This document shows positions 2,472-21,583 of a DNA stretch of 64,000 bases, in pieces. The notes under the pieces were generated by a model. The model searched no databases, was not told the DNA's origin, and saw only the letters and a list, made by a program, of their open reading frames with translations. The position numbers and the translations under genes are program-made. Location of the stretch: the sequence record NC_031928.1, one strand, 5' to 3'. This DNA comes from Escherichia phage WG01. The stretch's first letter is position 1, and each line of letters starts with the position of its first letter.

Positions 2472-2547
2472 AGTATTTCCTTCAGTTGGTTGATATTTTG
2501 TAATCCATGAGGACATTATACCCTGTCCTCTGAGGTTTGTAAACATT

Positions 2548-3283: not shown

Positions 3284-3303
3284 TCTGTTGTTTTGATAGG
3301 TCT

Positions 3304-3332
3304 ATAGTATCATGTTCTACGAAAGAGTAAAC
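3304..3332 (-). promoter_or_regulatory. early-type promoter cassette (GTTTAC -35, 17-nt spacer, TACTAT -10)
   Basis: Minus strand GTTTAC...TACTAT with conserved downstream AGACCTATCAAAAC; upstream of ORF 3005..3283. Confidence 0.5.
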
Positions 3333-3354
3333 ATCTTTTTTAAACCTTTTAGAA

Positions 3355-3384
3355 ACAAAAAAGGCCCAACCTTTCGGAAGGGCC
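3355..3384 (-). terminator. intrinsic terminator (repeated hairpin GGCCC..GGGCC plus U-run)
   Basis: Hairpin ggcccaacctttcggaagggcc followed on minus strand by TTTTTTGTTT; downstream of ORF 3390..3965. Confidence 0.55.
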
Positions 3385-3389
3385 TAGAA

Positions 3390-3965: not shown

Positions 3966-3983
3966 AAAAGCCCCAGACGGGGC
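3964..3983 (-). terminator. intrinsic terminator
   Basis: Hairpin GCCCCGTCTGGGGC followed by TTTTTT on minus strand; downstream of ORF 3989..4453. Confidence 0.55.
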
Positions 3984-3988
3984 TTTCG

Positions 3989-4453
3989 TTATTTGATTTG
4001 TTTAGCAGACCAGATACGGTCTTTGATGATTTTCTGAATATCTTCAACATACTCTAAGTCGTGAGCATGTGGATTATCTTTGAAGCTATGTGCTCGTGCC
4101 AGTTTCTGGCCTTCTGTTTTGATTACTAAAAGCTCTTTAAGAATTGCTTCATACTTAGAAATAATTCCTTTGGCGATATTTTTTTCTTGAGCGGCTTTAG
4201 GGTCCGCTTTTGACGCAGGTGCTTTACCTGTAGCTTTCTGGAACAATTCACCTGATGCAGCTAGGCTTTTAAAAACTCGGCTAACAGTATTGGCATTAGT
4301 AAAACCTTCGGCTTTAAAATCTTTAATAAAACGGAAACGTTCTTCATCAGAGGCGTCTTTGTAAGAATATTTACCTGCTTGAATTGCTGCAATCGCAGCG
4401 GCTTTTACATCTGAACTAGATTGTTCAGTCAAAAATTCATTGTAAGTTTTCAT
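3989..4453 (-). CDS. internal head protein-like (capsid-targeting-sequence-bearing) protein
   Basis: N-terminus [10 protein letters not shown] matches the T4 internal-protein leader MKTYQEFIAE with an L-x-E cleavage site; late promoter and terminator flank it. Confidence 0.6.
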   Translation of the reverse strand: MKTYNEFLTEQSSSDVKAAAIAAIQAGKYSYKDASDEERFRFIKDFKAEGFTNANTVSRVFKSLAASGELFQKATGKAPASKADPKAAQEKNIAKGIISKYEAILKELLVIKTEGQKLARAHSFKDNPHAHDLEYVEDIQKIIKDRIWSAKQIK

Positions 4454-4479
4454 ATTATTTCCTAAGTTAGTTTACTACA

Positions 4480-4487
4480 TATTTATA
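4480..4487 (-). promoter_or_regulatory. late promoter for the internal-protein-like gene 3989..4453
   Basis: Reverse complement of TATAAATA 27 nt upstream of the minus-strand ATG at 4453. Confidence 0.55.
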
Positions 4488-4488
4488 C

Positions 4489-4516
4489 AAAAAAAGCCCA
4501 ACCTTTCGGAAGGGCC
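4489..4516 (-). terminator. intrinsic terminator (second copy of the repeated hairpin)
   Basis: gcccaacctttcggaagggc followed by a 7-nt U-run on minus strand; between the RNA cluster and the late promoter at 4480. Confidence 0.55.
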
Positions 4517-4564
4517 TTTAACCTAGGGTAACCTTGTCGGGGTTCCACCTGCTAGGCAAGTGTT

Positions 4565-4725
4565 TGTACGAAACGCCGGGATTCGAACCCGGTTATTAAG
4601 TAGTTGACGCCACTCAATATTTTTAAAAGGCCATATCTCGACCATATCCGAACGTTCCGTCAAAAACGCTACTCGGCTTACGGCAAAGATATTTCCTCGA
4701 ATCGATAATTCGGTGCGCCGTTTCT
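4565..4725 (-). ncRNA. candidate tRNA-like small stable RNA (compare T4 species 1/2 RNAs)
   Basis: Minus-strand T-arm CCGGGTTCGAATCCCGG (plus 4576-4592) followed by a 7-nt acceptor-like strand CGTTTCG; a partially complementary strand lies about 150 nt upstream; no ORF over this span; boundaries approximate. Confidence 0.25.
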
Positions 4726-4898
4726 GCTGTGATGTAAGGGGACGTTAACAGATCGTAAAGATTTGTTAATGCCAGTCCTTACTCAGGGAACATCAGTCCG
4801 ACGACTTACCGGTAGCGACCCGGTTTCTTGTTTGTTGCGCCGGTGAATGCTGGTAATCAGTCTTCATACGACGGCTTGACTATATAATAGTCTTCATT

Positions 4899-4973
4899 TG
4901 GTATCCCGCCCTGGGATCGAACCAGGACCGCAAACTTAGAAGGATCGTATGCTATCCATTACACCAGCGGGAC
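4899..4973 (-). tRNA. tRNA-Arg (anticodon TCT)
   Basis: 75-nt cloverleaf on minus strand: 7-bp acceptor stem GTCCCGC/GCGGGAT, T-arm CCTGG-TTCGATC-CCAGG, anticodon loop CT-TCT-AA, encoded CCA. Confidence 0.8.
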
Positions 4974-4978
4974 GTAGT

Positions 4979-5055
4979 TGGTGACCCAGACCAGATTTGA
5001 ACTGGTAACCTTTCCCTTATGAGGGGACTGCTGCTAACCATTGAGCTACAGGGCC
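4979..5055 (-). tRNA. tRNA with anticodon CAT (Met, or Ile if lysidine-modified)
   Basis: Minus strand: acceptor GGCCCTG with 6 of 7 pairs, T-arm ACCAG-TTCAAAT-CTGGT, anticodon loop CT-CAT-AA, encoded CCA; D-arm irregular. Confidence 0.65.
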
Positions 5056-5060
5056 TTAAA

Positions 5061-5333
5061 TCAAACTACAAATCCAGCAGGAGCATTATCATCTTTAGCC
5101 ATGTGCTGAATTGTATGATAAGTCATTTCTTCAGGAGCAACCAGATAAGCCGCAGCGTTAACTAGTGGAATTATTTTTGGTTTAGCGAATGTGCTATCGG
5201 CAATTGCCATAAAGGGCTCGCCGTCGGTCTCAACTTCACCAAATTGACATTCATACGAAATAGAACAACGTTTGGTAGTGGTTGTCTTGGTTGCCGGGTC
5301 ATAAAAAGCTAATTTTAATACTAACATAAACAC
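5061..5333 (-). CDS. hypothetical protein
   Basis: 90-aa ORF directly upstream of the tRNAs on the same strand; GAGGT RBS. Confidence 0.4.
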   Translation of the reverse strand: MFMLVLKLAFYDPATKTTTTKRCSISYECQFGEVETDGEPFMAIADSTFAKPKIIPLVNAAAYLVAPEEMTYHTIQHMAKDDNAPAGFVV

Positions 5334-5444
5334 CTCAAATAAAATTAAGTAAAGTAAGTTTGATTAATAGACCTTGTCTATTATGAAAGGTTCTTTGAGG
5401 GAAGAACCTTTGGTAATAGAGGGTTACTTAATAATGTTAGAGTA

Positions 5445-5469
5445 ATAATAACACATTACTCTTAAAGCA
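5445..5469 (-). promoter_or_regulatory. candidate MotA-dependent middle promoter upstream of ORF 5061..5333 and the tRNAs
   Basis: Minus strand ATGCTTTAA (MotA-box-like TGCTTTA) followed 12 nt later by TATTAT. Confidence 0.3.
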
Positions 5470-5506
5470 TATTACTATTTTTAGGAATAGTCTGGTCAAA
5501 TTTGAT

Positions 5507-5797
5507 TCATTGTGGCCACATATTAATGTAATCAAGTTTAATAGAAGCAATCTTCAAAGGATTTTTAAAGATGTCGTATTCGACCAACCCGTTTTCAGTT
5601 GCGGTGTAGAAAGTAAAGTTAACAGAATTATAACGGCGACCATTAACTTTTAGTTTAACGTCGCTTGAACTACGACCAATATTAACCTGTTGGACATCAA
5701 GCACAGCACCTTTGCCAAAGTTGCGAATCAGTAGCTCTGCTGCAACCTGGTCTGAATTATATCCATTCTCTGGATTAGTAACCTTAACGTATAACAT
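5507..5797 (-). CDS. hypothetical protein
   Basis: 96-aa ORF abutting the upstream gene. Confidence 0.45.
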   Translation of the reverse strand: MLYVKVTNPENGYNSDQVAAELLIRNFGKGAVLDVQQVNIGRSSSDVKLKVNGRRYNSVNFTFYTATENGLVEYDIFKNPLKIASIKLDYINMWPQ

Positions 5798-6199
5798 TTA
5801 ACCCTCGTCTACAATAGTATGGGTATTGGCATTAACAATCTGCCACCAGTCAAAACGATCTGAGCCGTAAAGAGGATTATTCTCGTTTTCTTTAACAATT
5901 TCACGTAGTTCGTCTTCAGAAAATGCTTTAGCGATTAAATCGGTATAGCCACCACGTGGATAATAGTTATCACCAGCGAACAAAAGGAAATTTACCTTTC
6001 CAGAAGGAACATATGCTTCCTTAGGATACTTGTTTCCTGCATGGTCTACCACTTCAATATAACGGTAAGGAATATCAGTACTTTCAACCCATTGCCAAGC
6101 CGCAGCAGGGGATTCAAAAGCATCAACACCTAAACGGTTATCTTCATCTTTAGACGGATTATTTTCATAATCCGCATATACATAATATTCAACGTTCAT
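5798..6199 (-). CDS. hypothetical protein
   Basis: 133-aa ORF; start overlaps the stop of 6199..6384. Confidence 0.5.
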   Translation of the reverse strand: MNVEYYVYADYENNPSKDEDNRLGVDAFESPAAAWQWVESTDIPYRYIEVVDHAGNKYPKEAYVPSGKVNFLLFAGDNYYPRGGYTDLIAKAFSEDELREIVKENENNPLYGSDRFDWWQIVNANTHTIVDEG

Positions 6200-6384
6200 T
6201 ATTCACCTTTAGAGATTTTATCCATAACGATAGCGATTAAGCCGATTAGAAATGCTACTACCAATGAGATAGAATTTTCTGTTGTTGTCAGTAGTCCACA
6301 AATGAATCCTACAAACATCGAAAAGCTAAAAGCCATTGAAGCAATTACTACAGCAACATTACGAATCAGTTCAGCGCGTTTCAT
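6199..6384 (-). CDS. small membrane protein
   Basis: 61-aa ORF with two hydrophobic helices; GAGGAG RBS; early-type promoter upstream. Confidence 0.45.
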   Translation of the reverse strand: MKRAELIRNVAVVIASMAFSFSMFVGFICGLLTTTENSISLVVAFLIGLIAIVMDKISKGE

Positions 6385-6412
6385 TTTATTCTCCTCAGTA
6401 GTTGATAGGGTA

Positions 6413-6442
6413 ATAGTATCACTACCCTATCTAAAAGTAAAC
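6413..6442 (-). promoter_or_regulatory. early-type promoter cassette
   Basis: GTTTAC, 18 nt, TACTAT on minus strand upstream of ORF 6199..6384. Confidence 0.45.
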
Positions 6443-6453
6443 GGTTTTATAAA

Positions 6454-6762
6454 CTATTTTATTCCGCGTGATGCAATCGTATTCTGCCGTTTAACGCCAG
6501 TTTGTTTAAAGTTATGATTGTCGAGTTGATCGGTACGAGCAACTCCGAATGATGATTTAATCTTAGCTTTAGATCCTTTAGTTATAGAAATAAACATCTC
6601 GGGAGCCCCTTTCTTAAAGTCCGAAGCAATTACTTCAACACCGTTCTTAGCAAGTGACCTCAGAATTGCTTCCACATACTCATCATCAAGACCTGCTTGA
6701 GTATGAATAACGAATGTCTTTGGTGCAGCCGCTTCATTGATAAATTCTTGGTATGATTTCAT
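6454..6762 (-). CDS. internal head protein-like (CTS-bearing) protein
   Basis: N-terminus MKSYQEFINEA matches the T4 internal-protein leader; 102 aa. Confidence 0.6.
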   Translation of the reverse strand: MKSYQEFINEAAAPKTFVIHTQAGLDDEYVEAILRSLAKNGVEVIASDFKKGAPEMFISITKGSKAKIKSSFGVARTDQLDNHNFKQTGVKRQNTIASRGIK

Positions 6763-6792
6763 TTTATTTTCCTAATTAATTTTGATGAGATA

Positions 6793-6822
6793 ATAGTACC
6801 ACAACCCTATTTAAAAGTAAAC
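6793..6822 (-). promoter_or_regulatory. early-type promoter cassette
   Basis: GTTTAC, 18 nt, TACTAT on minus strand upstream of internal-protein-like ORF 6454..6762. Confidence 0.45.
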
Positions 6823-7095
6823 TCATTTTAAATAAATTGCATATTTTTTATAACCCGCTGTCTCATGACGAAGACCCTTATCATTAGCAAAACGCTCAAT
6901 GTTGTTAATTTGATTCTGGTCAAGTTCAGAGATGTCAAACACGAAAAAGTTACGTTTGTTGCCTAAAGTTACGTGATTAGTCAAATCGATGTTATAGAGA
7001 TGATTTATATTATCAATCATGGTCTTAACAGATTTGTTAATTTTTACTTCTTCATTAAGAATAGATTCAGCGATAAATTCTTGGTATGATTTCAT
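6823..7095 (-). CDS. internal head protein-like (CTS-bearing) protein
   Basis: N-terminus MKSYQEFIAES; 90 aa. Confidence 0.6.
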   Translation of the reverse strand: MKSYQEFIAESILNEEVKINKSVKTMIDNINHLYNIDLTNHVTLGNKRNFFVFDISELDQNQINNIERFANDKGLRHETAGYKKYAIYLK

Positions 7096-7096
7096 T

Positions 7097-7318
7097 TTAT
7101 TCTACGCCTGCGGCTTTCAAAAGTTTTTTAAGATTGGCTATGCCGCCAGCAGAAAACGTGACCTTGCCACCTTTTTCATTGATAGAGCCAGTCAATTTAG
7201 CAAGCTTATCACTAGGGACTTTTTTAAAATCAGCCAGTATGCCATCAAAGGTTTTTGTAACAACCGGCAGTTGGTCATGTTTTTTGGCTTCTGTAATAAA
7301 TTCTTGATAAGCTTTCAT
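7097..7318 (-). CDS. internal head protein-like (CTS-bearing) protein
   Basis: N-terminus MKAYQEFITEA; 73 aa; early promoter cassette upstream. Confidence 0.6.
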   Translation of the reverse strand: MKAYQEFITEAKKHDQLPVVTKTFDGILADFKKVPSDKLAKLTGSINEKGGKVTFSAGGIANLKKLLKAAGVE

Positions 7319-7356
7319 TTTTGATTTCCGTTTGGTTAGTTTGTTTTGATAGGTCT

Positions 7357-7385
7357 ATAGTATCATGCCTATAGACCTTGTAAAC
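7357..7385 (-). promoter_or_regulatory. early-type promoter cassette
   Basis: GTTTAC, 17 nt, TACTAT plus conserved AGACCTATCAAAAC; upstream of internal-protein-like ORF 7097..7318. Confidence 0.5.
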
Positions 7386-7396
7386 AACTTTTTAAA

Positions 7397-8295
<899 letters not shown>

Positions 8296-8303
<8 letters not shown>

Positions 8304-9057
8304 TTTTATTTCCTAATAATTTATCAATAGTGGTGTATAGTTCAGAAAGAGTGCCGTTATTTTCAACAACAACGTCACCAGGTAAAATTGGTAGACCCGC
8401 TTCAGTGATGTGCGAGTCTTGTACTTGACCGGTTTCAGCGCGAACTACATGAATAATCGTAGCACCCATCGCTCTGAGCGAATCAATTTCGTGTGTTTGA
8501 CGAACATCAGGTACGACATAGTATTTCGCATCAGAGTATATTTTATCAAAATAGTCTAAAGCGAACAACTTAACCCAATACATCTTATCAAATTGGTTAA
8601 CAATAATATCAGTCCCAAGGGTCTGCATGAGACGACGTACTGACCAATTGTTATTTTTATTTATTACTTCAAACAGTTGGTCTTTTGTTTCTTCAGACAG
8701 ATACTGGACTGGGGTAAGACCATAATGATATGCGGTACGAACATCCATTCCTGGAATAGGAAGGATATTATTCAGTTTGACAATAGCATTTTCAAAGATA
8801 TCAATCACATCATATGGTTTTAAAGGAATGATTTCTTCACGGTCGTAACCGATACCTTCAAAACAGTTAAAATCTAGTTTAGGCATGTAACTACGGTCGA
8901 ATACAGGGTCATCAGAGATGTATTCATAGGCTTCAGCCAGATACTTTTTAATAGGACCTGCGAGCTGAAATTTTACCGAATCCATATTTTCGATTACATA
9001 GTTAGCAACGGTATCCTTACCGCTACGTTTGATTCCTACAATTGATATTAGTTTCAT
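8296..9057 (-). CDS. 1: deoxynucleoside monophosphate kinase (gp1)
   Basis: P-loop GIKRSGKDT near N-terminus; 253 aa; T4-syntenic between 57A and 3. Confidence 0.75.
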
Positions 9058-9647
9058 TATTTTCTCATAGATGGATGCATAGACATACGAGCCACTCGTT
9101 GTTCGGCATACGAATCAATTTGTGGACGACCTGTAACTATTGTACCATCTATTTCTACAGCAAACGATTTGAAGTTGAATGTTGCTGTGGCGATAATCGC
9201 CGGGTCAGAATCCTCTTTATAAGAGTACTGGATTTCCGAGAGGTCGGATGGCCAACCACCGTAGTAATGAATGCTCATTACGATTTTCTGTTTGTTGTTA
9301 TCAAGGATGTGGAGGGTGATAGCTTCCGGTTGACCTTTAGGATGCCAGGCTTCTGAATCATGGGTTACATAGTTGTTTAATGACAACATCCACTTATAAA
9401 CGTCAAGCCACGATTTCAATTCACGGTCCACAAGAAAGTTCACAATCAACGGGTCGAATTCTACAGTAGAACCTGGCAGCTTAGCACGATGTATGCCCTG
9501 GGTCGATCCTGGGACGTCTGAGACCGGAATATGGATACCCGGTAGTGTTACATCTTGTACGTTCAATTTGAATGCCTGTGTCATTCCTGCGTCACTAACC
9601 TCTAAGATAAAGTTAGTAGTGTTAGTTTGGTTAAATAAACCGTTCAT
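9057..9647 (-). CDS. 3: tail completion / sheath stabiliser protein (gp3)
   Basis: 196 aa; position between genes 1 and 2 as in T4. Confidence 0.6.
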   Translation of the reverse strand: MNGLFNQTNTTNFILEVSDAGMTQAFKLNVQDVTLPGIHIPVSDVPGSTQGIHRAKLPGSTVEFDPLIVNFLVDRELKSWLDVYKWMLSLNNYVTHDSEAWHPKGQPEAITLHILDNNKQKIVMSIHYYGGWPSDLSEIQYSYKEDSDPAIIATATFNFKSFAVEIDGTIVTGRPQIDSYAEQRVARMSMHPSMRK

Positions 9648-9729
9648 AGGGTTCCTATATTGCTTAAGTCCCAGACAGTGTATAATGGTCCTAGGTCTGT
9701 TCCATTCAATAACTGGCTGGGATAATAGA

Positions 9730-10566
9730 TTATGAATTCTTCCATACTTTCTGAGCTGAATAACGCTTGCCTTTAGACATGAACTGTTGGAGCGGCATCA
9801 TTACGACATTAGCCCAATCAGACGGTTTTATCTCTACTAAAGGTCCCTTAATATTTCCAGGGATATAAGCCTTAATCATCACGTCGGCGCCAGCGAATCC
9901 TTTTACCTTACTCCAATCGATTTTTAATTTAGTCGAGTTCGTAATGGTAGGCGTACTCGCGTATTGCTTCAGCAATTCTTCCAGAAATTGCTGACGTGCT
10001 TTAGGTGGAATATAGTGTAAGTTCAGTCCGTACATTAAATTATGCTTACCTAACCCAAGATAAATTATTAAAGGATATTTGTCCCAGTATGGTAGGGTAT
10101 CCTTATGTTTGGCATCATAGATATAAGCATAAAGCTTACCAGGAGACGGTTTAGATACCTGGTGCCCACGAATTCCTTTCTTTAATGTTTCTGTAAACCA
10201 TTTAGCCGATTTATTGTTTACAGCGGCGCCCTCGTTAGCAATCTTATCACGAATACTCTTTCTAAAACTATTCACCAAAATTAATTGACGTTCTGCTTTG
10301 GTTAATTTATTGCCAGGTTTCTTCTGAAGTTTTTCAACCTGTACAGCAGTTTTAATTCGACTCGAGTATCGAGACATCGCAGATGTAAAGCTAGAATACT
10401 TGATGCCTTTATCTTCAGCGAATTTCTTAGCCGAAACACCTTTAGCCTTAGCGTTGGCATATTCAACGCCTAAAGTTATCCATTGTTGTTCTGAACGAGT
10501 AGGCTTGGAACCTTTTGTAGTTTCAGTAGCCTCGTTGATGTAAGAAAATATACTCATCCTTTCCAT
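9730..10566 (-). CDS. 2: DNA end protector protein (gp2)
   Basis: 278 aa (T4 gp2 about 274 aa); synteny 3-2-4. Confidence 0.65.
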
Positions 10567-11003
10567 CCTAATTTTTTCAGTGAGTTTTCGGTAATCAATC
10601 TGAAATTAATTCCCATTTTATCTGCTGTAGCTTTAGCAGCTTTCCATTTATCTTTATTTACACTCCATGTATAATGTTCGTTGATATATCTCTTTTTAGC
10701 AGCTGTAGTCATTTTAGCAGGCGCCGCTGGAGGATGGGTCTCTTTAAAAGGTTTGACTTCGAAAAAGAATTGTTGACCATTGTCGAACTTCACCCAGAAG
10801 TCCATAAAATACCGACGTTTCTTTCCATCAGCGTTACTAAAATATGGAATCACAACCTCTTCCGAGTTCCACTGGACGACATTAGGATGGTTGTCAAGCC
10901 AACGCATAAGCCATGCTTCCCAAGAGGAACGATATTGGATTTTCTTCCAATCACCTTTATATTTTTGTAAGTTTGTAGGTTTAAATTTCCCTGAGTAGGC
11001 CAT
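10554..11003 (-). CDS. 4: head completion protein (gp4)
   Basis: 149 aa; N-terminus MAYSGKFKP is T4 gp4-like; divergent from gene 53. Confidence 0.7.
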
Positions 11004-11013
11004 AGTGCCTCCT

Positions 11014-11021
11014 TATAAATA
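11014..11021 (+). promoter_or_regulatory. late promoter (TATAAATA) for gene 53
   Basis: Exact TATAAATA about 28 nt upstream of the gene 53 ATG. Confidence 0.6.
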
Positions 11022-11048
11022 TTAATATTATTTATACTCGGAGGCACT

Positions 11049-11651
11049 ATGCTCTTCTCATTTTTCGATCCTATAAATTACGAATCAAAAACAGTCAAGC
11101 CAGATTCCGGCTCATTAACTGATGCCGATGTACTGAGCGTACCGATGACTGATATATTTAGAAACTATAAAGAATATTTTGATAAAGTGGCTAAAAATTA
11201 TACACTTAAAACATATTATATCAGTGGGGCCCCTCGTCCAGAAGAATTAGCCCATCAACTTTATGGTAACGTGCAATTATATTGGGTTTTATTGATGTGT
11301 AATAACGTATATGACCCTTATTACGGCTGGATTACAGGCCAAGAATCTGCGTATCAAGCAGCTATTCAACGTTATGCTACTGCAGGCGGAAACCAAGTCC
11401 TTTATCATGTCAATGAAAAGGGTGAGAAATTCTGGAATCTAGTAAATACTCCGGAAAATCCTTATACTTGGTACGATAAAGGTGATACAGAAAAACGTTA
11501 TCCTCAATATGAAGGTCCTTTGGCTGCAGTAGATATTTACGAGGACGCCATTCGTAAAAATGAATATAAGCGCGAAATAAAGATTATAGACCCTAATGAC
11601 ATCGAGTCCTTTGTTTCCGCTTTAATTAGAGAAATGGAGAAAGCCCTCTAA
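11049..11651 (+). CDS. 53: baseplate wedge protein gp53
   Basis: 200 aa; late promoter upstream; directly precedes gene 5. Confidence 0.75.
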   Translation: MLFSFFDPINYESKTVKPDSGSLTDADVLSVPMTDIFRNYKEYFDKVAKNYTLKTYYISGAPRPEELAHQLYGNVQLYWVLLMCNNVYDPYYGWITGQESAYQAAIQRYATAGGNQVLYHVNEKGEKFWNLVNTPENPYTWYDKGDTEKRYPQYEGPLAAVDIYEDAIRKNEYKREIKIIDPNDIESFVSALIREMEKAL

Positions 11652-13438
11652 TGATTAACATGTCTGATAATGTAAGTTGGTTCGTCGGTGTAGTTGAAGA
11701 CCGAATGGACCCACTCCAACAAGGCCGAGTACGCGTGCGCGTATGGGGTATGCATCCCTATGAAAAGGTGCAAGGTCCTGTAAAAGGCCTTCGTACAGAA
11801 GATTTACCATGGATGTCGGTATTAATGCCTACATCTTCTGCCTCTGTTTCAGGTATCCAAACCGCTATGACTGGTATGGTCCCCGGTACACAAGTTTATG
11901 GTCACTTTCTTGATAAGTGGAAATTAAACGGACTTGTCCTTGGTACATACGGTTCCGCTTCAAGACAGAAGGCTAATCCTAATGAAGGGTTTAGTGACCC
12001 TACAGGCCAATATCCGCTTTATTTAGGTAACGATGCTGCTGCTTTAAACCGAGGTGGTGAAGTTGGATACGATGCCACTTCTAACGTAATACAAGATGCA
12101 AACACTGATGTAGGTATTAATCCTGACGGGTTGGATTTAAGTCAAGTCAAACCAGACGATAATCCTAATTTCACAATAGAAAACATGCTTCATCGTGATG
12201 AAGGGCTTAGACTGAAGGTATATTGGGATACCGAAGGTTATCCTACTATAGGTATAGGCCACCTTATCACACCACAACCTATTAGAGATATGAATCGAAT
12301 AAACAAAATATTATCTAATCAGGTAGGACGAGAAGTTAAAGGTAACCCTGGTGCAATATCAATGGATGAGGCTTCTAAATTATTCCAAGAAGACCTTAAA
12401 AAAGTCCAAAACGATATAGGTCGGCATAGTGTTGTAGGTCCTGTTTACAATAAAGAAAACCGTTCAAGACAAATGGCTCTTGAAAACATGGCTTTCCAAA
12501 TGGGATTAGGTGGATTGGCTAAATTCCGTGGAATGCTTAGTGCAATGCTAATAGGCGATTATAAAAAGGCATTTGAGGAAGCTCGTAATTCAGTATGGTT
12601 TAACCAAACTAAAGGTCGCGCATCAAGGGTGTCAATGATTATCCTCACAGGTAACATGGAATCATATGGTATTATGGCCCCTAAAGAAAGGTCATTTAAT
12701 GGCCGTTCGTATAGAATGATTCAAACCTTTGTGGCCCCTACAAATTCAGACCCTGCCGACCCGTGGACTCCAGAAGACACAAGGATTCTTTTTAAAGAAC
12801 CTGATTCTAGTTATAAAGGCGAATATCCATATGTCCAAACCATGCAAACTGAAGGCGGGCATATCCAAGAATTCGATAATACCCCAGGGCAAGAACGATA
12901 CCGTTTAATCCATCCTACCGGTAGTTATGAAGAAGTTGCTCCTGATGGACGTAAAACTTCTAAGACGGTAGCCGATGGTTATTATATGACCCAAGGCGAT
13001 TCAAATACTTATGTTGGTGGTAATAATAAAGTCAACGTTGGTGGCGATGAAACCTATTATAATATGGCAAACGTGCGCCGTCAAACTGATGGGTCTGAAA
13101 GCATTCATATTCGAGGGAATGAAACCAAAACTGTAGAAGGTAATGGAACTCTGCTTGTTAAAGGAAATGTTAAAATAGTTATTATGGGTACTGCTGATAT
13201 AACTGTTGAACAAGAAGCATATATTACGGTTGAAAAAGATACAACAGTTAATGTCAACCAGAATGCAGATATAAGCGTTAAACAAAAGGCCACAATCAAT
13301 GCTCAAAATATGGATGTAAATGTCGAACAAGATTTAAATTTTGCAGCGACGAACATTAATTTAAACGCATCAAATACTGTGCATATGGATGGCGGTTCAT
13401 TAGCTAAAGTATCTGGTGGCAACGTACAGGTCGGTTAA
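11651..13438 (+). CDS. 5: baseplate central spike with lysozyme domain (gp5)
   Basis: 595 aa; T4-lysozyme-like segment LRLKVYWDTEGYPTIGIGHLI; C-terminal repetitive beta-helix-like region. Confidence 0.9.
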   Translation: MINMSDNVSWFVGVVEDRMDPLQQGRVRVRVWGMHPYEKVQGPVKGLRTEDLPWMSVLMPTSSASVSGIQTAMTGMVPGTQVYGHFLDKWKLNGLVLGTYGSASRQKANPNEGFSDPTGQYPLYLGNDAAALNRGGEVGYDATSNVIQDANTDVGINPDGLDLSQVKPDDNPNFTIENMLHRDEGLRLKVYWDTEGYPTIGIGHLITPQPIRDMNRINKILSNQVGREVKGNPGAISMDEASKLFQEDLKKVQNDIGRHSVVGPVYNKENRSRQMALENMAFQMGLGGLAKFRGMLSAMLIGDYKKAFEEARNSVWFNQTKGRASRVSMIILTGNMESYGIMAPKERSFNGRSYRMIQTFVAPTNSDPADPWTPEDTRILFKEPDSSYKGEYPYVQTMQTEGGHIQEFDNTPGQERYRLIHPTGSYEEVAPDGRKTSKTVADGYYMTQGDSNTYVGGNNKVNVGGDETYYNMANVRRQTDGSESIHIRGNETKTVEGNGTLLVKGNVKIVIMGTADITVEQEAYITVEKDTTVNVNQNADISVKQKATINAQNMDVNVEQDLNFAATNINLNASNTVHMDGGSLAKVSGGNVQVG

Positions 13439-13439
13439 T

Positions 13440-15503
13440 ATGAATTACTACGATAAAGTTGATGAAGTGGTAGGGACTGTAACAAGTCCCTGTGATGACG
13501 CAGTAGGACCCGGTGAATATCGCCGGGTTAAATGGGAATTATATAACCCAACAGGTGCTTTTATTCAACCTGGGAATGGCGTTGAATGGGATACCGAGAT
13601 TATTCCACTAGCTACACATTTATACACACAAAATCCATTTGGTAATAAGTCCGAAACTTTTCCTGCACCTCCCCCACCGGAAGATGGAACAAGTCAAGGT
13701 ATCTGGTGTGCTAAACTCGGAATATTCTTTATTACGCAATTGGATTTAGAAAATTATGTAGAATCGATTGGTGCAACTCTTTTGCCCGGTAATGATTGGT
13801 ACGGCGCTGATTTATCAAAATCTGTATTGTATAAAACATCTATTGAATATGATATGTATCGCATCGAAAACTGTGGCGGTGTATGGACATCACAAGGCCC
13901 CAGAATGGACCCCAGGACGATGATTGCAGTTACGGCTGATTATCATATGTATGTCAACTTTAACGGCCTTGGTGACTCCCGCAGGGCTTATTTGAAGTAC
14001 TATGAGACAAAACCTTGTACTTATGTTGGACTGGTATTAAATCTAGATGTTGATATGAGTATCCCAGGAACTCCGATTCCGGGACCGGTATCCATCGGGT
14101 CTTTACCGCCAGAAATAACCGGGCGAGCCAGGGCAATAAGCTGTGTTCCTTTTACAGCGGAATTCCCTTACAACGGATTGACCAATGCGATTATGGCTTC
14201 ATGGAATACATCTAGGAATTCATTCAAATTATATTGGGATATGCTCCCTGGATGGCCATCATCTGGTGGAACCGATTGGGAAAAATTCTTCGATTCTGGT
14301 TATAGTAAGCTATCGGTCGCAATGGAAGAGCTAGGCAACTCGGCTGTTGCTATGTGTCAATATGTTCAGCAAATGGCTTTTCTTGCATTTAAAGATGCCA
14401 TATCACAGGTCTTGAATATTGTTGGCGGTGGGTGGGACTTACTTAAAAGCTTTTTACCCTCGATTACTATTATGGGCATGACTATTGACCTAGAAGACCT
14501 CTGCACTTCAGGTGATGGTGTACAGAAATTAAAAGAAGCATGGAAAAACTTTAATTTAGAAGAAACCATCCAATCGATTTATTCTGCCATTGGGTCTGCA
14601 TACGATTATTCGGTTGAACGCGTCAAGATGTATTCGCGTGACCTTATTGATGCAATTACAGACTTGTATGACTGGGCCTGGTCTCAATTGCTTATGGCTG
14701 GTGTTGCATTATCAAAACTGTGTGTAGACCTCGCTCAAATATGGAGTATGCCTCCTATAGTTCCGAACCCAGTTTGGAGCGTTATTACTGCGGTCAAGGA
14801 AATGATGAAGCAAGTTAAACCACTGGACATGATAATGAGCGGTAACTTTCCAGGATTCACAGCATCAGATGTTTATCAAATGGTTATGGAAAAGGTAGAC
14901 CAGAAAATAGACGAAGCTTATGCAATGATTGAGGCTCTTAAAACCCAGGCACTCAATCTGTGGAATGAGATTAAGCTCAAAAAGCAAGAAGTACAAAAAC
15001 AAGCTATTGAATTTAAACAATATCTTTCAGGAATGTACGAAAAAGTTACAGACGAGCTAACTGCTCAGAAGGAAGCCGCATTAGCACAAGCTGAAGCTGC
15101 ACTCGAACTTTTAAAGAATAAATATAATCAGATTAAGAACTCTATTACCGAAAGTCAAACCTCCGTTTCTGATGTATTAGATATGGCTTTAGAAGAATTC
15201 AAAAAACTTCCTATTGTGGCTCAAATGGAAGAACTTCTCGGTATGCTCGGAGCTACTGTAGATGATATCATGGTTATATACGAGAACTCAGTAACTAAAG
15301 CAAAATCTTTATATCACGAATTTACTGATGGTTCCAGGTCAATGAAAGACTTGTGCAAATCAATGTATAACCAAATATCAACATTATCCTTAAGTAAGGT
15401 GGTACAATGGATTAATAAGATGCTGGGAATATTCGGTTTAACGATTGCATTTCCATCCCTTTCCATTTGCATACCTTGTTTAGAATCTCCTACTAGGAAT
15501 TAA
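13440..15503 (+). CDS. large hypothetical protein inserted between genes 5 and 6
   Basis: ORF track 13416..15503 starts at GTG; ATG at 13440 sits in a TAATATG junction with the gene 5 stop; 688 aa with Pro-rich PAPPPPEDG, C-terminal coiled coil and hydrophobic tail; no T4 gene of this size here. Confidence 0.6.
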   Translation: MNYYDKVDEVVGTVTSPCDDAVGPGEYRRVKWELYNPTGAFIQPGNGVEWDTEIIPLATHLYTQNPFGNKSETFPAPPPPEDGTSQGIWCAKLGIFFITQLDLENYVESIGATLLPGNDWYGADLSKSVLYKTSIEYDMYRIENCGGVWTSQGPRMDPRTMIAVTADYHMYVNFNGLGDSRRAYLKYYETKPCTYVGLVLNLDVDMSIPGTPIPGPVSIGSLPPEITGRARAISCVPFTAEFPYNGLTNAIMASWNTSRNSFKLYWDMLPGWPSSGGTDWEKFFDSGYSKLSVAMEELGNSAVAMCQYVQQMAFLAFKDAISQVLNIVGGGWDLLKSFLPSITIMGMTIDLEDLCTSGDGVQKLKEAWKNFNLEETIQSIYSAIGSAYDYSVERVKMYSRDLIDAITDLYDWAWSQLLMAGVALSKLCVDLAQIWSMPPIVPNPVWSVITAVKEMMKQVKPLDMIMSGNFPGFTASDVYQMVMEKVDQKIDEAYAMIEALKTQALNLWNEIKLKKQEVQKQAIEFKQYLSGMYEKVTDELTAQKEAALAQAEAALELLKNKYNQIKNSITESQTSVSDVLDMALEEFKKLPIVAQMEELLGMLGATVDDIMVIYENSVTKAKSLYHEFTDGSRSMKDLCKSMYNQISTLSLSKVVQWINKMLGIFGLTIAFPSLSICIPCLESPTRN

Positions 15504-15504
15504 A

Positions 15505-17463
15505 ATGGCTACTCCTACGAATTACCAATTAACAAGAACCGTTAACGCTATCCCAAAAGTATTTGTGGGAGCTACGTTTGAAGAGATTAAAAAGAATATT
15601 ATCGATTGGCTTTCTAGCCAGGACGAATTTAAGGATTACGATTTCGTTGGTTCGCGAATGAATATCCTGATTGACATGTTAGCTTACAACACCCTGTATA
15701 TGCAGCAGTTTGCTAATACCGCGGTATATGAATCTTTCATCGGTACTGCTAACTTGCGTTCCTCCGTCGTCCAGGCTGCACAGGATAACGGCTATTTGCC
15801 AAGTTCTAAATCAGCAGCCAAAACAAGTATCATGTTGACCTGTACCCAAGCCCTGAATGAAAAGAATATTCGTATCCCACGTGGTACTAAATTCTTGGCC
15901 TATGCCCGTGATACTTCAGCAGACCCGTATGCTTTTGTTACCACGGAAAACGTTATTGCCGTACGTGATGTTAATAACCAATATCTTCCTATCGTATCTT
16001 TAGCACAAGGTCGTATTATCCGTACTGAACTTAAGTATGACCCTAAAACTCCTATTCTTATTCGTGACCCGGATATTGATAGACAGGAAGTTAAACTTTA
16101 TGTCGATGGCGCAGAATGGACTAACTGGACTAATAAATCCATGGTTCATGCTGGTAGTACATCAACAATTTACTATATGCGTGAAACCGTAGATGGTAAT
16201 ACTGAATTCTTCTTTGGTGAAGGTGTTGCTGAAAAATCAGTTGCAGGTGGGGTATTAGAAGCTAATTATATTGGTGGTTTAAAACCTGTTAAAGATGCTA
16301 CCATTGTTATAGAATACCTTCGTACAGATGGTGAAGTTGCTAACGGGGCAGTGGACTTTAGTTATGCGGATTCTTTGGCATATATTACGGTTGAAAAAAT
16401 TACAGAAAACTACGATGAAAACCCGGATTATGTAGGTGCTGACGGTGGTGGTGACCCTGAAGATATTGAACGTATTCGTGAACTTGCTGTAGTTAAACGT
16501 GAAGCCCAGATGCGTGCTGTAACCGGTACAGATTATGATACATTCGTTTCGGAGCGATTTGGTTCTATTGTACAAGCAGTACAAACCTTTACAGACCCAA
16601 ATAAACCAGGTTATGCCTTTGTTACCATTAAACCTAAATCAGGATTGTATTTGACTGCGGTTCAACGCGAAGATATCCAAAATTATCTTTCAGAATTTAA
16701 CTTGGCACCTATTACCCCTTCGGTTATTTCTCCTGACTACTTGTTCTTGAAGCATAAAATTAAGGTTTCATATGCACTGAACAAATTACAGGAATCCGAA
16801 CAATGGTTAACGGCTCAAATCCTTTCCCAAATAGACCGTTATTATATTAACGAAGTTGAAATATTCAACCACGGATTTGCCAAGTCTAAAATGCTGACTT
16901 ATATTGATAATGCAGACCACAGTATCCTTGGCTCTTCGGCTACGGTAACAATGGTTCGCGAGGTATTAAACTTCTTCAAAACACCTGAAGCAGGTATTAA
17001 ATACTATAATCAATACACCAACCGTTCTGTAACTTCTAGTGAATTTGAGTTCGTCCCAACAAACGTATCTGATGTTGTTAAATCTTACAACGTACGTATT
17101 GTTGCCACAGATAAAGACGAACGAGGCGATGGTAAAATGGTTATAGGTCCTTTCCGACCTGGCGATGTAATTGAAAACCAATACATCCAACCTTACACCG
17201 GAGATGACTTCGATAAAATGGCAGCGCCTGCAGACCAATCGGTCTACTATGTTATTGGCGAAATTGATTATTACTCGGACTTTATTTTCTGGGATATCGC
17301 CGCAATAGGCCTTACTTCCGACCGTTTTGAAGTCCAGTCTATTGAACTTTATGCAGGGCCAGACCAAGACAACATCTTTACCAAAGACGGTTCTTTAATC
17401 GTATTTGAAGATGACCTTCGTCCTCAGTACACAACTATAGAGTTGGAACCAATTACAATATAA
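15505..17463 (+). CDS. 6: baseplate wedge protein gp6
   Basis: 652 aa; N-terminus MATPTNYQLTRT is T4 gp6-like. Confidence 0.9.
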   Translation: MATPTNYQLTRTVNAIPKVFVGATFEEIKKNIIDWLSSQDEFKDYDFVGSRMNILIDMLAYNTLYMQQFANTAVYESFIGTANLRSSVVQAAQDNGYLPSSKSAAKTSIMLTCTQALNEKNIRIPRGTKFLAYARDTSADPYAFVTTENVIAVRDVNNQYLPIVSLAQGRIIRTELKYDPKTPILIRDPDIDRQEVKLYVDGAEWTNWTNKSMVHAGSTSTIYYMRETVDGNTEFFFGEGVAEKSVAGGVLEANYIGGLKPVKDATIVIEYLRTDGEVANGAVDFSYADSLAYITVEKITENYDENPDYVGADGGGDPEDIERIRELAVVKREAQMRAVTGTDYDTFVSERFGSIVQAVQTFTDPNKPGYAFVTIKPKSGLYLTAVQREDIQNYLSEFNLAPITPSVISPDYLFLKHKIKVSYALNKLQESEQWLTAQILSQIDRYYINEVEIFNHGFAKSKMLTYIDNADHSILGSSATVTMVREVLNFFKTPEAGIKYYNQYTNRSVTSSEFEFVPTNVSDVVKSYNVRIVATDKDERGDGKMVIGPFRPGDVIENQYIQPYTGDDFDKMAAPADQSVYYVIGEIDYYSDFIFWDIAAIGLTSDRFEVQSIELYAGPDQDNIFTKDGSLIVFEDDLRPQYTTIELEPITI

Positions 17464-17480
17464 ACCTCTTCGGAGGTTTA
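17463..17480 (+). other. intercistronic hairpin between genes 6 and 7
   Basis: AACCTCTTCGGAGGTT (UUCG tetraloop) directly before the gene 7 RBS; no U-run. Confidence 0.4.
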
Positions 17481-17490
17481 AGGAGATTTA

Positions 17491-20400
17491 ATGTCTGTAC
17501 AAGCGCCTTATGTTACTAGTCTGAGAATTGATAAACTCTCGGCTAACCATGTGAGCATTCTTTGGGATGACGTAGGCGCCAACTTCTATTATTTCGTAGA
17601 ACTGGCCCAAACGAAGGATGCGGGTGTAGAAATTCCCGACGATAGATTATTTTGGAGAAATTTAGGTTACACCCCTAATAACGAATGGTTTGAAGAGGCA
17701 TTCATTTCTCCTAATTCATTTTATAAAATGCGAGTTGCGGTGGCCGCCCAGGGGTTTGAGCAGTCCGAATGGGTTTACACTGAAGAATTTGAAACTTTCT
17801 CTACCAACGCATATACATTTGAGCATATGCGCGAATTCACTTTGTCTAATAAATTTATTGAAGAAAAATTCACAAAAAATAATCAGAATTATGTGAACTT
17901 TAATACCGATGCCATTATGGCTTCCTTAATGACGGAAGATTTTAACTTTACGCCAGCGTATTCGCATTTGTCATCTATATCAAATTATGTTTTAAAAGCC
18001 GACCGTTTCCATGAAATCCAAGGAAGCATCCAAGCGGTTTGTAAAGACCCTAAACGTTCTATTTTAATGGAACTTGGTGGTGTACTTTACCTTTTAGAAA
18101 GATTCCAAAGTACTGCTAAGGTTTCTAATGATAAAGGGCAGAACTGGCATTATATCCGTTTGTTTAATGACCGAGTAGGTAACCCTGTTTCGCGTACAGC
18201 ACATTACCAAACTGAAACTACTACGTATGTTCTAGGTTATGACCAAATATTTTACGGACGTAAATCAAGTGATATTCGTTGGTCTGCTGATGATGTCCGT
18301 TTTAGCTCCCAAGATATAACATTTGCTAAAATAGGTAGTGATATCGACCTTCCATTTGAAATCGAGATATTTGGGTCATATGCAAAACTTCCTTTGCCTA
18401 TTTCCACTATTGCTGAAGCTATATGCGCTTCTGATGATTTCATTTATGTTGCAGGTAGAGACAGAGTTTATAAAGCAAAAACATCTGAGGCCCCTATAGA
18501 CACCGACCCTAGTTCTCCGACTTATGGAGAGAAGATATTTGAAAGCGGATATTCGACTATCACAGGGAACCCTAAAGCAGTTTGTTATAAATTAGATTCT
18601 ATCCAAGGCCATACATTTGCTTTAATTACAGGTGAAGTTAAAGAAGAAAAAATGGACCCTACGGTCGAATCCAATGTGGTTGATTCTGAATCCAAAGGTG
18701 TTTATTGGTTAGACACTTCAACTGATACATGGACCCGTGTATTTGGAAACACTGAAGAAGAACGTCGTCGTATAGAGCATGGATATACCAGCATGTCTAC
18801 TGATGGAGAGGAATTATTTTTCAGTTCAAGCAACTTTAGATATGAAGTAGAGGTTGATTCTGAGCTTCCTTTGGAATACCCTGAAATTGTCACCTCCGCC
18901 GTTAAATATGTTAAAGATGAACAATGGATTCACGATAAACATTATTTGATGATGAGTTTTAGGTCTAACTCTAAATCCGATTTCAAAGAATTTAAACCTG
19001 GGCGTATGGCTTATTATGCCGAACCATTCTTTAGTTGGTCTCGACGCGATGGAACCCGTTCATGGATTACCACTGGTGACCATGCGATGGTTGTTTATAA
19101 CGATGCTTTATACCAGAAAATTATCGACCTGAACAGTGGTTCTTCACCTGAACGTATTGTTCATGAGATTTGGAATAAAGGTTTTTGTAAAGTCACATCT
19201 CCTAATATAGAGTTCAACGGCTTTAAGAAATATTCTTCTGGAATGATGATTCACAAATCTACAGGTGAATTGGTTGGATATTTTGAATTCGACTATCGTG
19301 TACGCGATGAAGTCCGTGTTATTTGGAAGCCTAAAGAAATTATGTTTACGGCTGAATTGCAAAACCAAGAACATGAAATCCCGTGGAAACCTAAAGAGGA
19401 AGTTGGTGAGCAAGACCCGGACCTCCAGCCTTTACTGGTTAAAATGATTCCAGATAGTTATTTGCTTCAAGATAGCAACTTTGAAAAATTCTGTGAATAC
19501 TATCTCCAATTTATTAGTGATGGCTCAGGTACACACTATAATAATTTGTTGAATCTTATTCGTAACCAATACCCACGTGAAGAAGATTCATGGGAATATT
19601 TGTGGTCGGAAATCTATAAGCGTAATATCTATTTGTCGAAAGAAAAACGCGACGAAGTAGTTCGTTTTTTCCAGGCGCGCCAAACCGATTTTTGGTCTAC
19701 AAAAGGTACCGAAGCTTCATATAAATTCCTGTTTAAATTGCTTTACAATGAAGATGTAGAAATTGATATCGAGTCCAAGAACTCTATCGAATATGATATC
19801 ATCGTAGAATCTGATAATATCAGTGAAGATATCGTAGGCCAAACGATTTATACTCCTACAGGTCGTAGTAATGTTACTTATATAGAACGAAATTACAAAG
19901 ATGGTAAACTGCAATGGCGTTTAACCATTCATAATCTTTTAGGTCGTTTTATAGTCGGACAGGAAATTAAATCTGAACGTACTTCGTTCAAGGGTATGAT
20001 TGTTCAGGGCGTACGTGGTAAAGAGCTTTTGAGTAACAATATCGACTATATCAACCGTAACCGTTCTTATTATGTGATGACCATTAAGTCTAATCTCCCT
20101 ACTTCTCGTTATCGCAACGATGTTTTGAGATTTGTTCATCCAGTAGGTTTCGGCTTTGTAGGTATAACTTTGCTTTCTATGTTCGTTAACGTAGGTTTAA
20201 CGCTAAAACATACAGAAACTATTATTAATATCCTTAAGAACTACAAATGGGACTCAGGTTTGCCATCTGAATGGTATGATAGAGTTGCTGTAATAGGTTT
20301 TGATGGTAATATAGAACGAGACCCTAGAACAGGACTTCCGGTTTATAACGTTGGACCTAAAGCAGGAGAACCGTTTGATATCCCTGCAGATTATGATGCG

Positions 20401-20586
20401 GAAAATGATTTCTCTGTATTCCAAGGTCAATTACCACACGAACGTATTAAAAAGCATAGTCCATTGTTTGACCAAAGTGCTGTGACCTTTGCCAATTGGC
20501 GTGCACTGGTTGATAAGCGTCTTAAAGACGATATTGGAAATCCTAGAGACCCTAAAGTTCCAACTCAGGTAAAAATTAATGATTAA
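17491..20586 (+). CDS. 7: baseplate wedge protein gp7
   Basis: 1031 aa (T4 gp7 1032 aa); synteny. Confidence 0.85.
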   Translation: MSVQAPYVTSLRIDKLSANHVSILWDDVGANFYYFVELAQTKDAGVEIPDDRLFWRNLGYTPNNEWFEEAFISPNSFYKMRVAVAAQGFEQSEWVYTEEFETFSTNAYTFEHMREFTLSNKFIEEKFTKNNQNYVNFNTDAIMASLMTEDFNFTPAYSHLSSISNYVLKADRFHEIQGSIQAVCKDPKRSILMELGGVLYLLERFQSTAKVSNDKGQNWHYIRLFNDRVGNPVSRTAHYQTETTTYVLGYDQIFYGRKSSDIRWSADDVRFSSQDITFAKIGSDIDLPFEIEIFGSYAKLPLPISTIAEAICASDDFIYVAGRDRVYKAKTSEAPIDTDPSSPTYGEKIFESGYSTITGNPKAVCYKLDSIQGHTFALITGEVKEEKMDPTVESNVVDSESKGVYWLDTSTDTWTRVFGNTEEERRRIEHGYTSMSTDGEELFFSSSNFRYEVEVDSELPLEYPEIVTSAVKYVKDEQWIHDKHYLMMSFRSNSKSDFKEFKPGRMAYYAEPFFSWSRRDGTRSWITTGDHAMVVYNDALYQKIIDLNSGSSPERIVHEIWNKGFCKVTSPNIEFNGFKKYSSGMMIHKSTGELVGYFEFDYRVRDEVRVIWKPKEIMFTAELQNQEHEIPWKPKEEVGEQDPDLQPLLVKMIPDSYLLQDSNFEKFCEYYLQFISDGSGTHYNNLLNLIRNQYPREEDSWEYLWSEIYKRNIYLSKEKRDEVVRFFQARQTDFWSTKGTEASYKFLFKLLYNEDVEIDIESKNSIEYDIIVESDNISEDIVGQTIYTPTGRSNVTYIERNYKDGKLQWRLTIHNLLGRFIVGQEIKSERTSFKGMIVQGVRGKELLSNNIDYINRNRSYYVMTIKSNLPTSRYRNDVLRFVHPVGFGFVGITLLSMFVNVGLTLKHTETIINILKNYKWDSGLPSEWYDRVAVIGFDGNIERDPRTGLPVYNVGPKAGEPFDIPADYDAENDFSVFQGQLPHERIKKHSPLFDQSAVTFANWRALVDKRLKDDIGNPRDPKVPTQVKIND

Positions 20587-21583
20587 TTCTACAGTAGTTT
20601 ATCGTTCTATTGTTACTTCAAAATTTAGAACGGAAAAAATGTACAACTTTTACAGAACAATAGGTGATGGTGAAGACCAGAACACCATGTATGTATCTTT
20701 CGGAAGGGCCCGACCATGGGCCGATAACGAAAACGACCCAGGTTTTGCCCCGCCATATCCTGTAGATGATTCTGAAGGCGTAGAAGACGTCTGGACAAAC
20801 ATGATGGGATGCGTTAAGGTTTATAAGAGCATGTTGGATTGTGTTGTCCCGCGCAAAGACTGGGGCGATACCTCTTATCCTAATCCGTTTACTTTCCAGA
20901 TTGGTGAAATTGTAGTGGCGAACAGCCAGCCGCAAAACCGTACTGATGTCGGTGCCGGGTGGATGGTTTATCGTTGTGTAGATATCCCAGAATCAGGTAC
21001 ATGTTCTATTTTGTCCCTTGATAATAAAACTGAGTGTATTAAACTTGGTGGTAAATGGACCTCAAATGTACAGTCGGTTAAAGCTCCAGCAGGTCAAGGT
21101 GATACGGAAGGTATGGTTGATACGGGTGATGGGTATCTCTGGGAATATTTGTATGAGATTCCACCTGATGTAAGTATTAACCGTTGCACTAATGAATATA
21201 TTGTAGTACCATGGCCAGAAGAAATTGCCGAAGACCCTGAACGTTGGGGATACGAGAATAATCTTACTTGGCAGCAAGACGATTATGGATTGATTTATCG
21301 TATTAAAGGCAATACCATTCGTTTTAAAGCATTCTTAGATTCAGTTTACTTCCCTGAATTTAGTCTTCCTGGTAACAAAGGATTTAGACAGCTTTCGATA
21401 ATTTCTAATCCATTAGAAGCTAAAGCTCACCCATCCGATCCGATCATTAAAGCCGAAAAAGAGTACTATGATGTTATAGACCTCTCCCGCCATTCAGGTG
21501 AAATGATTTATATGGAAAACCGTCCTCCGGTTATTCGTTCCATGGACCAAACAGAAGAAATTAACATTATCTTCGAATTCTAA
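20579..21583 (+). CDS. 8: baseplate wedge protein gp8
   Basis: 334 aa, same length as T4 gp8; terminator downstream. Confidence 0.85.
   Translation: MINSTVVYRSIVTSKFRTEKMYNFYRTIGDGEDQNTMYVSFGRARPWADNENDPGFAPPYPVDDSEGVEDVWTNMMGCVKVYKSMLDCVVPRKDWGDTSYPNPFTFQIGEIVVANSQPQNRTDVGAGWMVYRCVDIPESGTCSILSLDNKTECIKLGGKWTSNVQSVKAPAGQGDTEGMVDTGDGYLWEYLYEIPPDVSINRCTNEYIVVPWPEEIAEDPERWGYENNLTWQQDDYGLIYRIKGNTIRFKAFLDSVYFPEFSLPGNKGFRQLSIISNPLEAKAHPSDPIIKAEKEYYDVIDLSRHSGEMIYMENRPPVIRSMDQTEEINIIFEF

Follow-up and report, generated by a model that had tools for sequence, protein, structure and literature searches.

A large protein encoded behind the gene 5 spike of a Bp7-like coliphage is exchanged together with the spike tip and probably caps it in place of gp5.4

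How contractile tails cross the cell envelope after the outer membrane has been pierced is poorly understood, and spike tips are the parts that touch the cell first. Here we analyze a 687-amino-acid (aa) open reading frame (ORF) that directly follows gene 5, which encodes the spike and tail lysozyme, in a 64,000-nucleotide stretch of DNA from Escherichia phage WG01 (NC_031928.1), referred to below as the window. We consider it probable (about 70%) that the product is a virion protein capping a variant gp5 beta-helix end in place of the tip protein gp5.4. The present analysis itself provides the homology, the gene position, the late-operon setting, the lack of gp5.4, the joint exchange with the gp5 tip, and the predicted architecture; the tip density of phage RB43 is taken from the literature.

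The window comes from a Dhakavirus, a coliphage resembling Bp7. Its ORF product matches Bp7 YP_007004295 at 100% identity, and the DNA on either side of the ORF is ∼97% identical to that of Bp7. The ORF occupies 13440–15503 on the + strand, with its TAA stop codon at 15501–15503. A first-pass annotation, made from the letters and their reading frames, had already reported the frame but gave its length as 688 aa, a count that includes the stop codon. As that annotation also recorded, the ATG at 13440 lies within a TAATATG that overlaps the gene 5 stop (13436–13438); the ATG of gene 6, at 15505, is one base past the ORF stop (TAAAATG). The frame returned by the ORF finder reaches upstream to a GTG at 13416, which is not the start, since all 61 homologues begin at MNY or MDY aligned with the ATG at 13440. 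Pfam searches identified gp53, gp5 (OB, lysozyme, and beta-helix domains), gp6, and gp7 among the neighbours, and the locus is laid out as follows.

11014–11021, + strand: T4-type late promoter motif TATAAATA, 28 nt upstream of gene 53
11049–11651, + strand: gene 53, baseplate wedge (Pfam PF11246, E 9e-73)
11651–13438, + strand: gene 5, spike and tail lysozyme, 595 aa (Pfam Gp5_OB, Phage_lysozyme, Gp5_trimer_C, and Gp5_C)
13440–15503, + strand: the 687-aa ORF, an orf205w-type putative spike-tip protein (phrog_5296; RB43 homology)
15505–17463, + strand: gene 6, baseplate wedge (Pfam; DNA homology to JS98 restarts at 15494)

In T4, the interval between genes 5 and 6 contains 5.1, segC, 5.3, and the 97-aa 5.4, in agreement with the earlier description of an interval holding small ORFs including gp5.4.

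The 687-aa ORF is not a chance ORF, because 62 full-length homologues (31–100% identity) were found in a collection of 5.8 billion proteins and tblastn detected the gene in 214 phage records, mostly from phages of Klebsiella, Escherichia, Enterobacter, Cronobacter, Citrobacter, and Proteus. These homologues are nearly always annotated as “hypothetical”. The product matches PHROG 5296 (function unknown) end to end (E = 0, residues 1–682 of 685 profile positions) and shares 43% identity over 99% of its length with RB43 orf205w (YP_239181; E 2e-172), to which the SP18 annotation refers as RB43ORF205w. Pfam, NCBIfam, and PADLOC scans of the ORF returned nothing above noise, with sub-threshold coiled-coil matches, and a profile search of PDB sequences gave no significant match (top: Hbl-B, E 0.007, 73 residues). 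A profile search of 1.84 billion representative proteins recovered ∼8 full-length clusters plus fragments of the family and, outside it, solely tape-measure helical segments at E 1e-4 to 1e-8. As judged from these searches, the family is narrow and confined to T4-like phages.

A few records depart from this picture. In GenBank PQ187642, PQ657796, PQ657798, PP782000, and MT341500, homologues are labelled “tail length tape measure protein” or “baseplate hub structural protein”, labels that family and structure searches do not support. Escherichia phage phT4A carries a shortened copy of the gene (NC_055712.1, 101438–102904) comprising residues 193–682 only (485 aa), and two BFVD entries, A0A7T3TJJ6 (359 aa) and A0A7T3TJK5 (340 aa), resemble two halves of one gene.

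A spike-tip role has already been proposed for the RB43 orthologue and is thus not new, and that proposal is still unproven. Mattenberger et al. (bioRxiv 10.1101/2025.08.28.672839; PMC12407873) reported that gene 5.4 is missing in RB43, RB16, and Lw1, that orf205w fills the 5.1–5.4 locus, and that its ∼690-aa product has a mixed alpha/beta part (residues 1–220) followed by a helical remainder, and they suggested it as an unusual spike tip. In their 17.7 Å, C6-symmetrised map of the RB43 baseplate the tip is larger than in T4, and a low-confidence AlphaFold model of orf205w can be fitted into the tip density (PMC12407873); this map is the sole evidence found for a physical position of such a protein on the gp5 tip. 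To this the present analysis adds evidence for an exchange cassette of gp5 tip plus putative cap in two genera, including that of T4 itself, a confident structural model, and an N-domain without known structural relative.

The first-pass annotation described the gene as inserted between genes 5 and 6, which proved inaccurate. JS98, a congener of Bp7, has the gene order 5-5.1-5.4-6 at this locus, and the window aligns with JS98 DNA at ∼92% identity over 9000–13210 and 15494–21000, with nothing aligning by blastn across 13211–15493. Sliding identity decays from >90% to ∼50% over ∼13100–13210, and the blastn alignment ends at 13210, inside gene 5. The break defines two nested features.

13211–13438, + strand: exchanged 3' end of gene 5, encoding a variant beta-helix tip ending ...SGGNVQVG (identity break against JS98)
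13211–15493, + strand: whole exchange cassette, gp5 tip plus 687-aa ORF (no DNA similarity to JS98)

The equivalent JS98 segment measures 1.0 kb and contains the gp5 tip, 5.1, and 5.4, all of which the cassette replaces. At the protein level, window gp5 and its JS98 counterpart share 96% identity over residues 1–511 and 32% over the last ∼84. Tequatrovirus G8 repeats the pattern: its gp5 is 100% identical to that of T4 for ∼500 residues and then 21% identical, its tip is ∼90% identical to the window tip, and its next gene is a 73%-identical copy of the ORF. On sequence comparison, then, the gene is not a simple insertion: it and the final ∼85 codons of gene 5 travel together as a single cassette, which has been exchanged in two separate genera, with the breakpoint within gene 5 both times. 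The other genes of the window are JS98-like, which indicates that the ORF arrived by cassette exchange.

The question raised in the first-pass annotation, whether the 5-6 interval of other T4-like phages holds similar cargo, can be answered from eight carriers: the window, SP18, G8, PM2, LPCS28, KP15, and RB43 (seven genera), together with a metagenomic contig (L007) whose ORF is merely 31% identical to that of the window. The same gene follows gene 5 in every one, starting at most 7 nt from the gene 5 stop. All eight carriers have a variant, slightly longer beta-helix end in the partner gp5, which terminates in ...GG.V(Q/S)VG; the gp5.4 carriers T4 and JS98 terminate in ...YTIDGSRIDIG. Among the seven phage carriers (21 pairs), ORF identity correlates with identity of the gp5 tip at a Spearman coefficient of 0.90 versus 0.42 for the rest of gp5, values computed from non-independent pairs and excluding the metagenomic contig, whose gp5 is partial. 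The ORF stays linked to gene 5 even in carriers that have lost its direct connection to gene 6: in Cronobacter phage LPCS28 (L012, 2501–7067) small reverse-strand ORFs take the place of gene 6 after the homologue, and in the metagenomic contig (237–4970) the homologue and gene 6 are separated by a gp25-like gene. Co-variation with the gp5 tip and linkage to gene 5 form the pattern expected of two physically fitting parts, not of unrelated cargo in a plastic locus.

Searches for gp5.4, which is present in 1,422 phage records, covered the window and the whole Bp7 genome, the latter assembled from the window and four further stretches. T4 gp5.4 gave no tblastn match better than E 0.22, and a hidden Markov model (HMM) built from 57 gp5.4 sequences, run against all stop-to-stop frames, reached a best E of 0.73, versus 2e-57 for the T4 control. 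One alignment to window 2355–2624 (- strand; 22.7% identity, E 27) was full-length yet chance-level, with no coherent ORF at that position. Nor is the tip domain hidden in the 687-aa ORF itself. No match to PAAR (PF05488) was found in it at E ≤ 0.1, alignment to a 30-sequence gp5.4 profile with hhalign gave a probability of 0.1%, and the small conical beta fold with threefold pseudo-symmetry is not seen in the 687-aa protein; the idea that its N-terminus is a diverged PAAR or gp5.4 domain was rejected by the gp5.4 HMM search, the structure, and the profile-profile comparison. The protein is not PAAR-like, and the earlier remark that it lacks PAAR-like repeats is upheld by Pfam, the comparison with the gp5.4 profile, and the predicted structure. 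In the genomes checked, the 5-6 interval holds either an ORF of the 687-aa type or gp5.4.

The expression context is that of the baseplate genes. The late promoter motif occurs 17 times in the window versus 7.7 expected; on the + strand, the copy upstream of gene 53 is the sole one before 28132, and no convincing terminator was found between gene 5, the ORF, and gene 6. The stop-start coupling at both ends of the ORF argues for co-translation with the structural genes, and by this arrangement the ORF is assigned to the late baseplate operon, with predicted translational coupling to genes 5 and 6. Between the divergent genes 4 and 53, two TATAAATA motifs lie back to back (11014 on the + strand and 11029 on the - strand, window 11014–11036).

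The first-pass annotation had suggested predicting the structure of the product alone, and AlphaFold2 with a 61-sequence alignment yields a confident model (mean predicted local distance difference test score, pLDDT, 87; predicted template modelling score 0.78). Model and alignment together delimit four regions.

13440–14309, + strand: N-terminal alpha/beta domain, approximately residues 1–290 (pLDDT >90 for residues 20–200; invariant C18 and C193)
13653–13703, + strand: hypervariable, indel-rich loop containing PAPPPPEDG (alignment)
14319–15431, + strand: all-helical domain, residues 294–664 (long helices 294–328, 398–435, 475–529, 538–575, and 631–664)
15432–15500, + strand: conserved hydrophobic C-terminal tail, GLxIxFPxISxCxP (alignment; predicted beta-strand)

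Foldseek against BFVD returned family members alone, and the N-domain appears, from its model, to be a new fold. The helices of the second domain are 35–55 residues each and are predicted to pack as an intramolecular bundle of long antiparallel helices, instead of the long C-terminal coiled coil first proposed. The proline-rich peptide PAPPPPEDG noted at the outset is present, at about residues 77–85, as part of the hypervariable loop and not as a conserved linker. The hydrophobic, cysteine-containing tail, by comparison, was described correctly: GIFGLTIAFPSLSICIPCL occupies residues 663–681 and is conserved, C677 being kept in 59 of 61 sequences, and residues 673–682 are modelled as a terminal beta-strand. 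That the tail forms a transmembrane helix is unlikely given its proline-containing, alternating pattern and the modelled strand; no signal peptide or transmembrane helix is predicted anywhere in the protein.

Conservation peaks in residues 121–140, 321–340, 461–480, and 641–660. Two invariant loop motifs between long helices, PPxVPNPxW (residues 438–446, window 14751–14777) and GNFPGFT (residues 468–474, window 14841–14861), are among the best conserved segments. Of the cysteines, which are spread over the N-domain and the C-terminal part, C18 and C193 never vary, C235 hardly does, and C639 is 87% conserved; the codons for C18, C193, C235, and C677 lie at window 13491, 14016, 14142, and 15468. 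These four residues could form a metal site, or disulfides joining the tail to the N-domain.

The first-pass annotation had inferred a spike-associated or injected protein from the position of the gene, and this reading is the one best supported by the gene order and sequence comparisons: the gene follows gene 5 in every lineage examined, is exchanged with the tip, and occurs without gp5.4, in line with the RB43 proposal. As a cap, the 687-aa protein would be synthesized late, on one message with gp53, gp5, and gp6, and would dock on the gp5 trimer at the blunt C-terminal end of its beta-helix, with the matching ...GG.VQVG sequence on the same cassette. Upon sheath contraction, it would lead the spike across the outer membrane and be released into the periplasm together with it; periplasmic delivery of a spike has been shown for P2 gpV (PMC12407873). 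In place of a PAAR cone, the modelled cap would combine the new-fold alpha/beta N-domain, a ∼370-residue bundle of long amphipathic helices, and the conserved hydrophobic beta-tail. The binding site, copy number, delivery, and membrane activity of the protein are what we infer.

A more tentative suggestion is that the helical bundle and hydrophobic tail become membrane-active after delivery, destabilizing a membrane or helping to form a channel, a role beyond sharpening the spike. On a further speculative step, the protein might represent a new class of spike cap, in which a previously unseen fold binds the beta-helix end and also acts as delivered cargo, the helices and tail refolding into or onto a membrane and opening or guiding a path for the DNA.

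Several points weigh against a spike cap. A literature search for virion proteomics of carrier phages, and with it for direct evidence of this protein or a homologue in virions, found none: the KP15/KP27 and phiEap-3 papers contain no mass spectrometry, and the ValerieMcCarty phages, considered as a source, are Jiaodaviruses, the genus of the gp5.4-carrying KPV15. The one virion proteome found for a possibly related phage, Morganella phage MP1 (PMC5384007), lists nothing between gp141 and gp147, which is uninformative, as gp5 falls in the same gap. For RB43, co-production of orf205w with gp5beta failed, the tip map reaches only 17.7 Å with imposed C6 symmetry, and the authors grade their assignment “possibly” (PMC12407873). 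A 77-kDa protein is also an odd “sharpener”, a threefold pseudo-symmetric docking surface is not evident on it, and the idea of membrane activity is based solely on weak, composition-prone matches to tape-measure, apolipoprotein-like, and translocator proteins. Finally, a dedicated chaperone would likewise be expected to co-exchange with the gp5 tip.

Such a chaperone, a non-virion factor assisting assembly of the variant beta-helix end, would have its parallel in the chaperones of tail fibres and tailspikes, whose genes lie right behind those of their clients and which co-vary with the client C-terminus. A client and its chaperone would account equally well for the co-exchange and the tight stop-start coupling, and the lack of co-purification of orf205w with gp5beta also fits (PMC12407873). 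The absence of the protein from the MP1 list would agree with it too, if MP1 has a homologue, but those data missed gp5 as well. A chaperone would, however, leave the extra tip density of RB43 without an explanation, there being no gp5.4 to account for it, and 687 residues with a highly conserved C-terminal half are large for a client segment of ∼85 residues. To our knowledge, the T4 gp5 beta-helix requires no such factor, and we regard a chaperone as unlikely.

The membrane-related features of the putative cap could alternatively belong to a virion-borne, tape-measure-like protein for ejection or channel formation. It would be lodged within the hub or tube, away from the tip, and would leave after the spike to bridge the periplasm or the inner membrane. 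The long amphipathic helices and hydrophobic tail are compatible with this, the words “tape measure” appear in some GenBank records, and residues ∼470–667 match tape-measure PHROGs 305 and 8462 and PF10145-containing proteins weakly (E 1e-4 to 1e-6). These matches, however, involve only segments of coiled-coil or apolipoprotein-like character and score far under every curated cut-off, and the Bp7 genome already has a homologue of gp29, the T4 tape measure and hub protein; on these grounds we rejected membership of the tape-measure family. Moreover, the gene changes in step with the outer gp5 end rather than with genes for the hub or tube, and an ejection protein would leave the enlarged RB43 tip unexplained, so that we hold this alternative to be quite improbable.

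Least plausible is a late protein with neither a structural role nor a relation to the spike, such as a membrane-associated exclusion or lysis-timing factor, that happens to sit at a plastic locus: the 5-6 interval is known to be variable (ORFans and a homing endonuclease in T4) and the C-terminus is hydrophobic, but linkage to gene 5 is invariant over seven genera and at 31% identity, even with gene 6 elsewhere, two independent exchanges both have their breakpoint within gene 5, gp5.4 is absent in all carriers checked (Bp7 here; RB43, RB16, and Lw1 per PMC12407873), and the protein, its tail modelled as a beta-strand, has no predicted signal peptide or transmembrane helix.

The closest counterpart of the putative cap is RB43 orf205w, a full-length homologue that also lies directly after gene 5, in a genome without gene 5.4 and with the same variant gp5 ending, and that shares the plan of an N-terminal alpha/beta part followed by an all-helical one. 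The two differ in context, RB43 being a Pseudotevenvirus and the window belonging to the Tevenvirinae (Dhakavirus) with otherwise JS98-like genes, and they are 57% diverged in sequence; the model obtained here is confident (61 sequences, pLDDT 87), whereas that of the preprint is low-confidence. Like T4 gp5.4 and other PAAR tips (PF05488; PDB 4KU0 and 4JIV), the ORF lies downstream of the spike gene and its product presumably caps the blunt end of a trimeric beta-helix, but it is 687 rather than 97 aa long, lacks PAAR motifs, and requires a different gp5 end. In concept, it also resembles the “specialised” tips of type VI secretion systems (T6SSs), PAAR or VgrG proteins with C-terminal effector extensions, in that a spike-end protein would deliver a large extra domain, although Pfam, NCBIfam, and PADLOC revealed no PAAR/VgrG module or recognizable toxin domain. 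Long antiparallel amphipathic helices, with weak sequence or structure matches, are shared with tape-measure proteins and with alpha-helical pore-forming or translocator proteins (Hbl-B, YaxB, and IpaB), yet the matches cover at most ∼190 of the 687 residues and reach no family cut-off.

If a 77-kDa helical protein does take the place of a 10-kDa PAAR-like cone, tip function would go beyond sharpening the spike, and a portable gp5 tip and cap would mean that T4-like phages could swap penetration devices as they do tail-fibre adhesins. A cap that is also delivered cargo would give phages their own version of the T6SS tips that bear effectors. The cassette structure suggests that not only adhesins but also penetration modules form part of the host-range equipment of therapeutic T4-like phages; many of these phages infect Klebsiella, Enterobacter, and Cronobacter. 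It also provides natural near-isogenic pairs, T4/G8 and JS98/Bp7, with near-identical gene 5 up to the breakpoint, which make the function testable.

Elsewhere in the window, two regions differ from the Bp7 record. The ∼4.5 kb of 3135–7604, which contain tRNA-Arg(tct) (4899–4973, - strand), tRNA-Met(cat) (4979–5055, - strand), and about ten small ORFs, have no counterpart in Bp7, where ∼460 bp lie across the linear ends; either the two close relatives truly differ by an indel here or the Bp7 record is incomplete. In the region of duplicated alt (ADP-ribosyltransferase) genes, 57348–58767 and 61573–63090 have no blastn match to Bp7 and their flanks are 88–92% identical, which points to local mosaicism.

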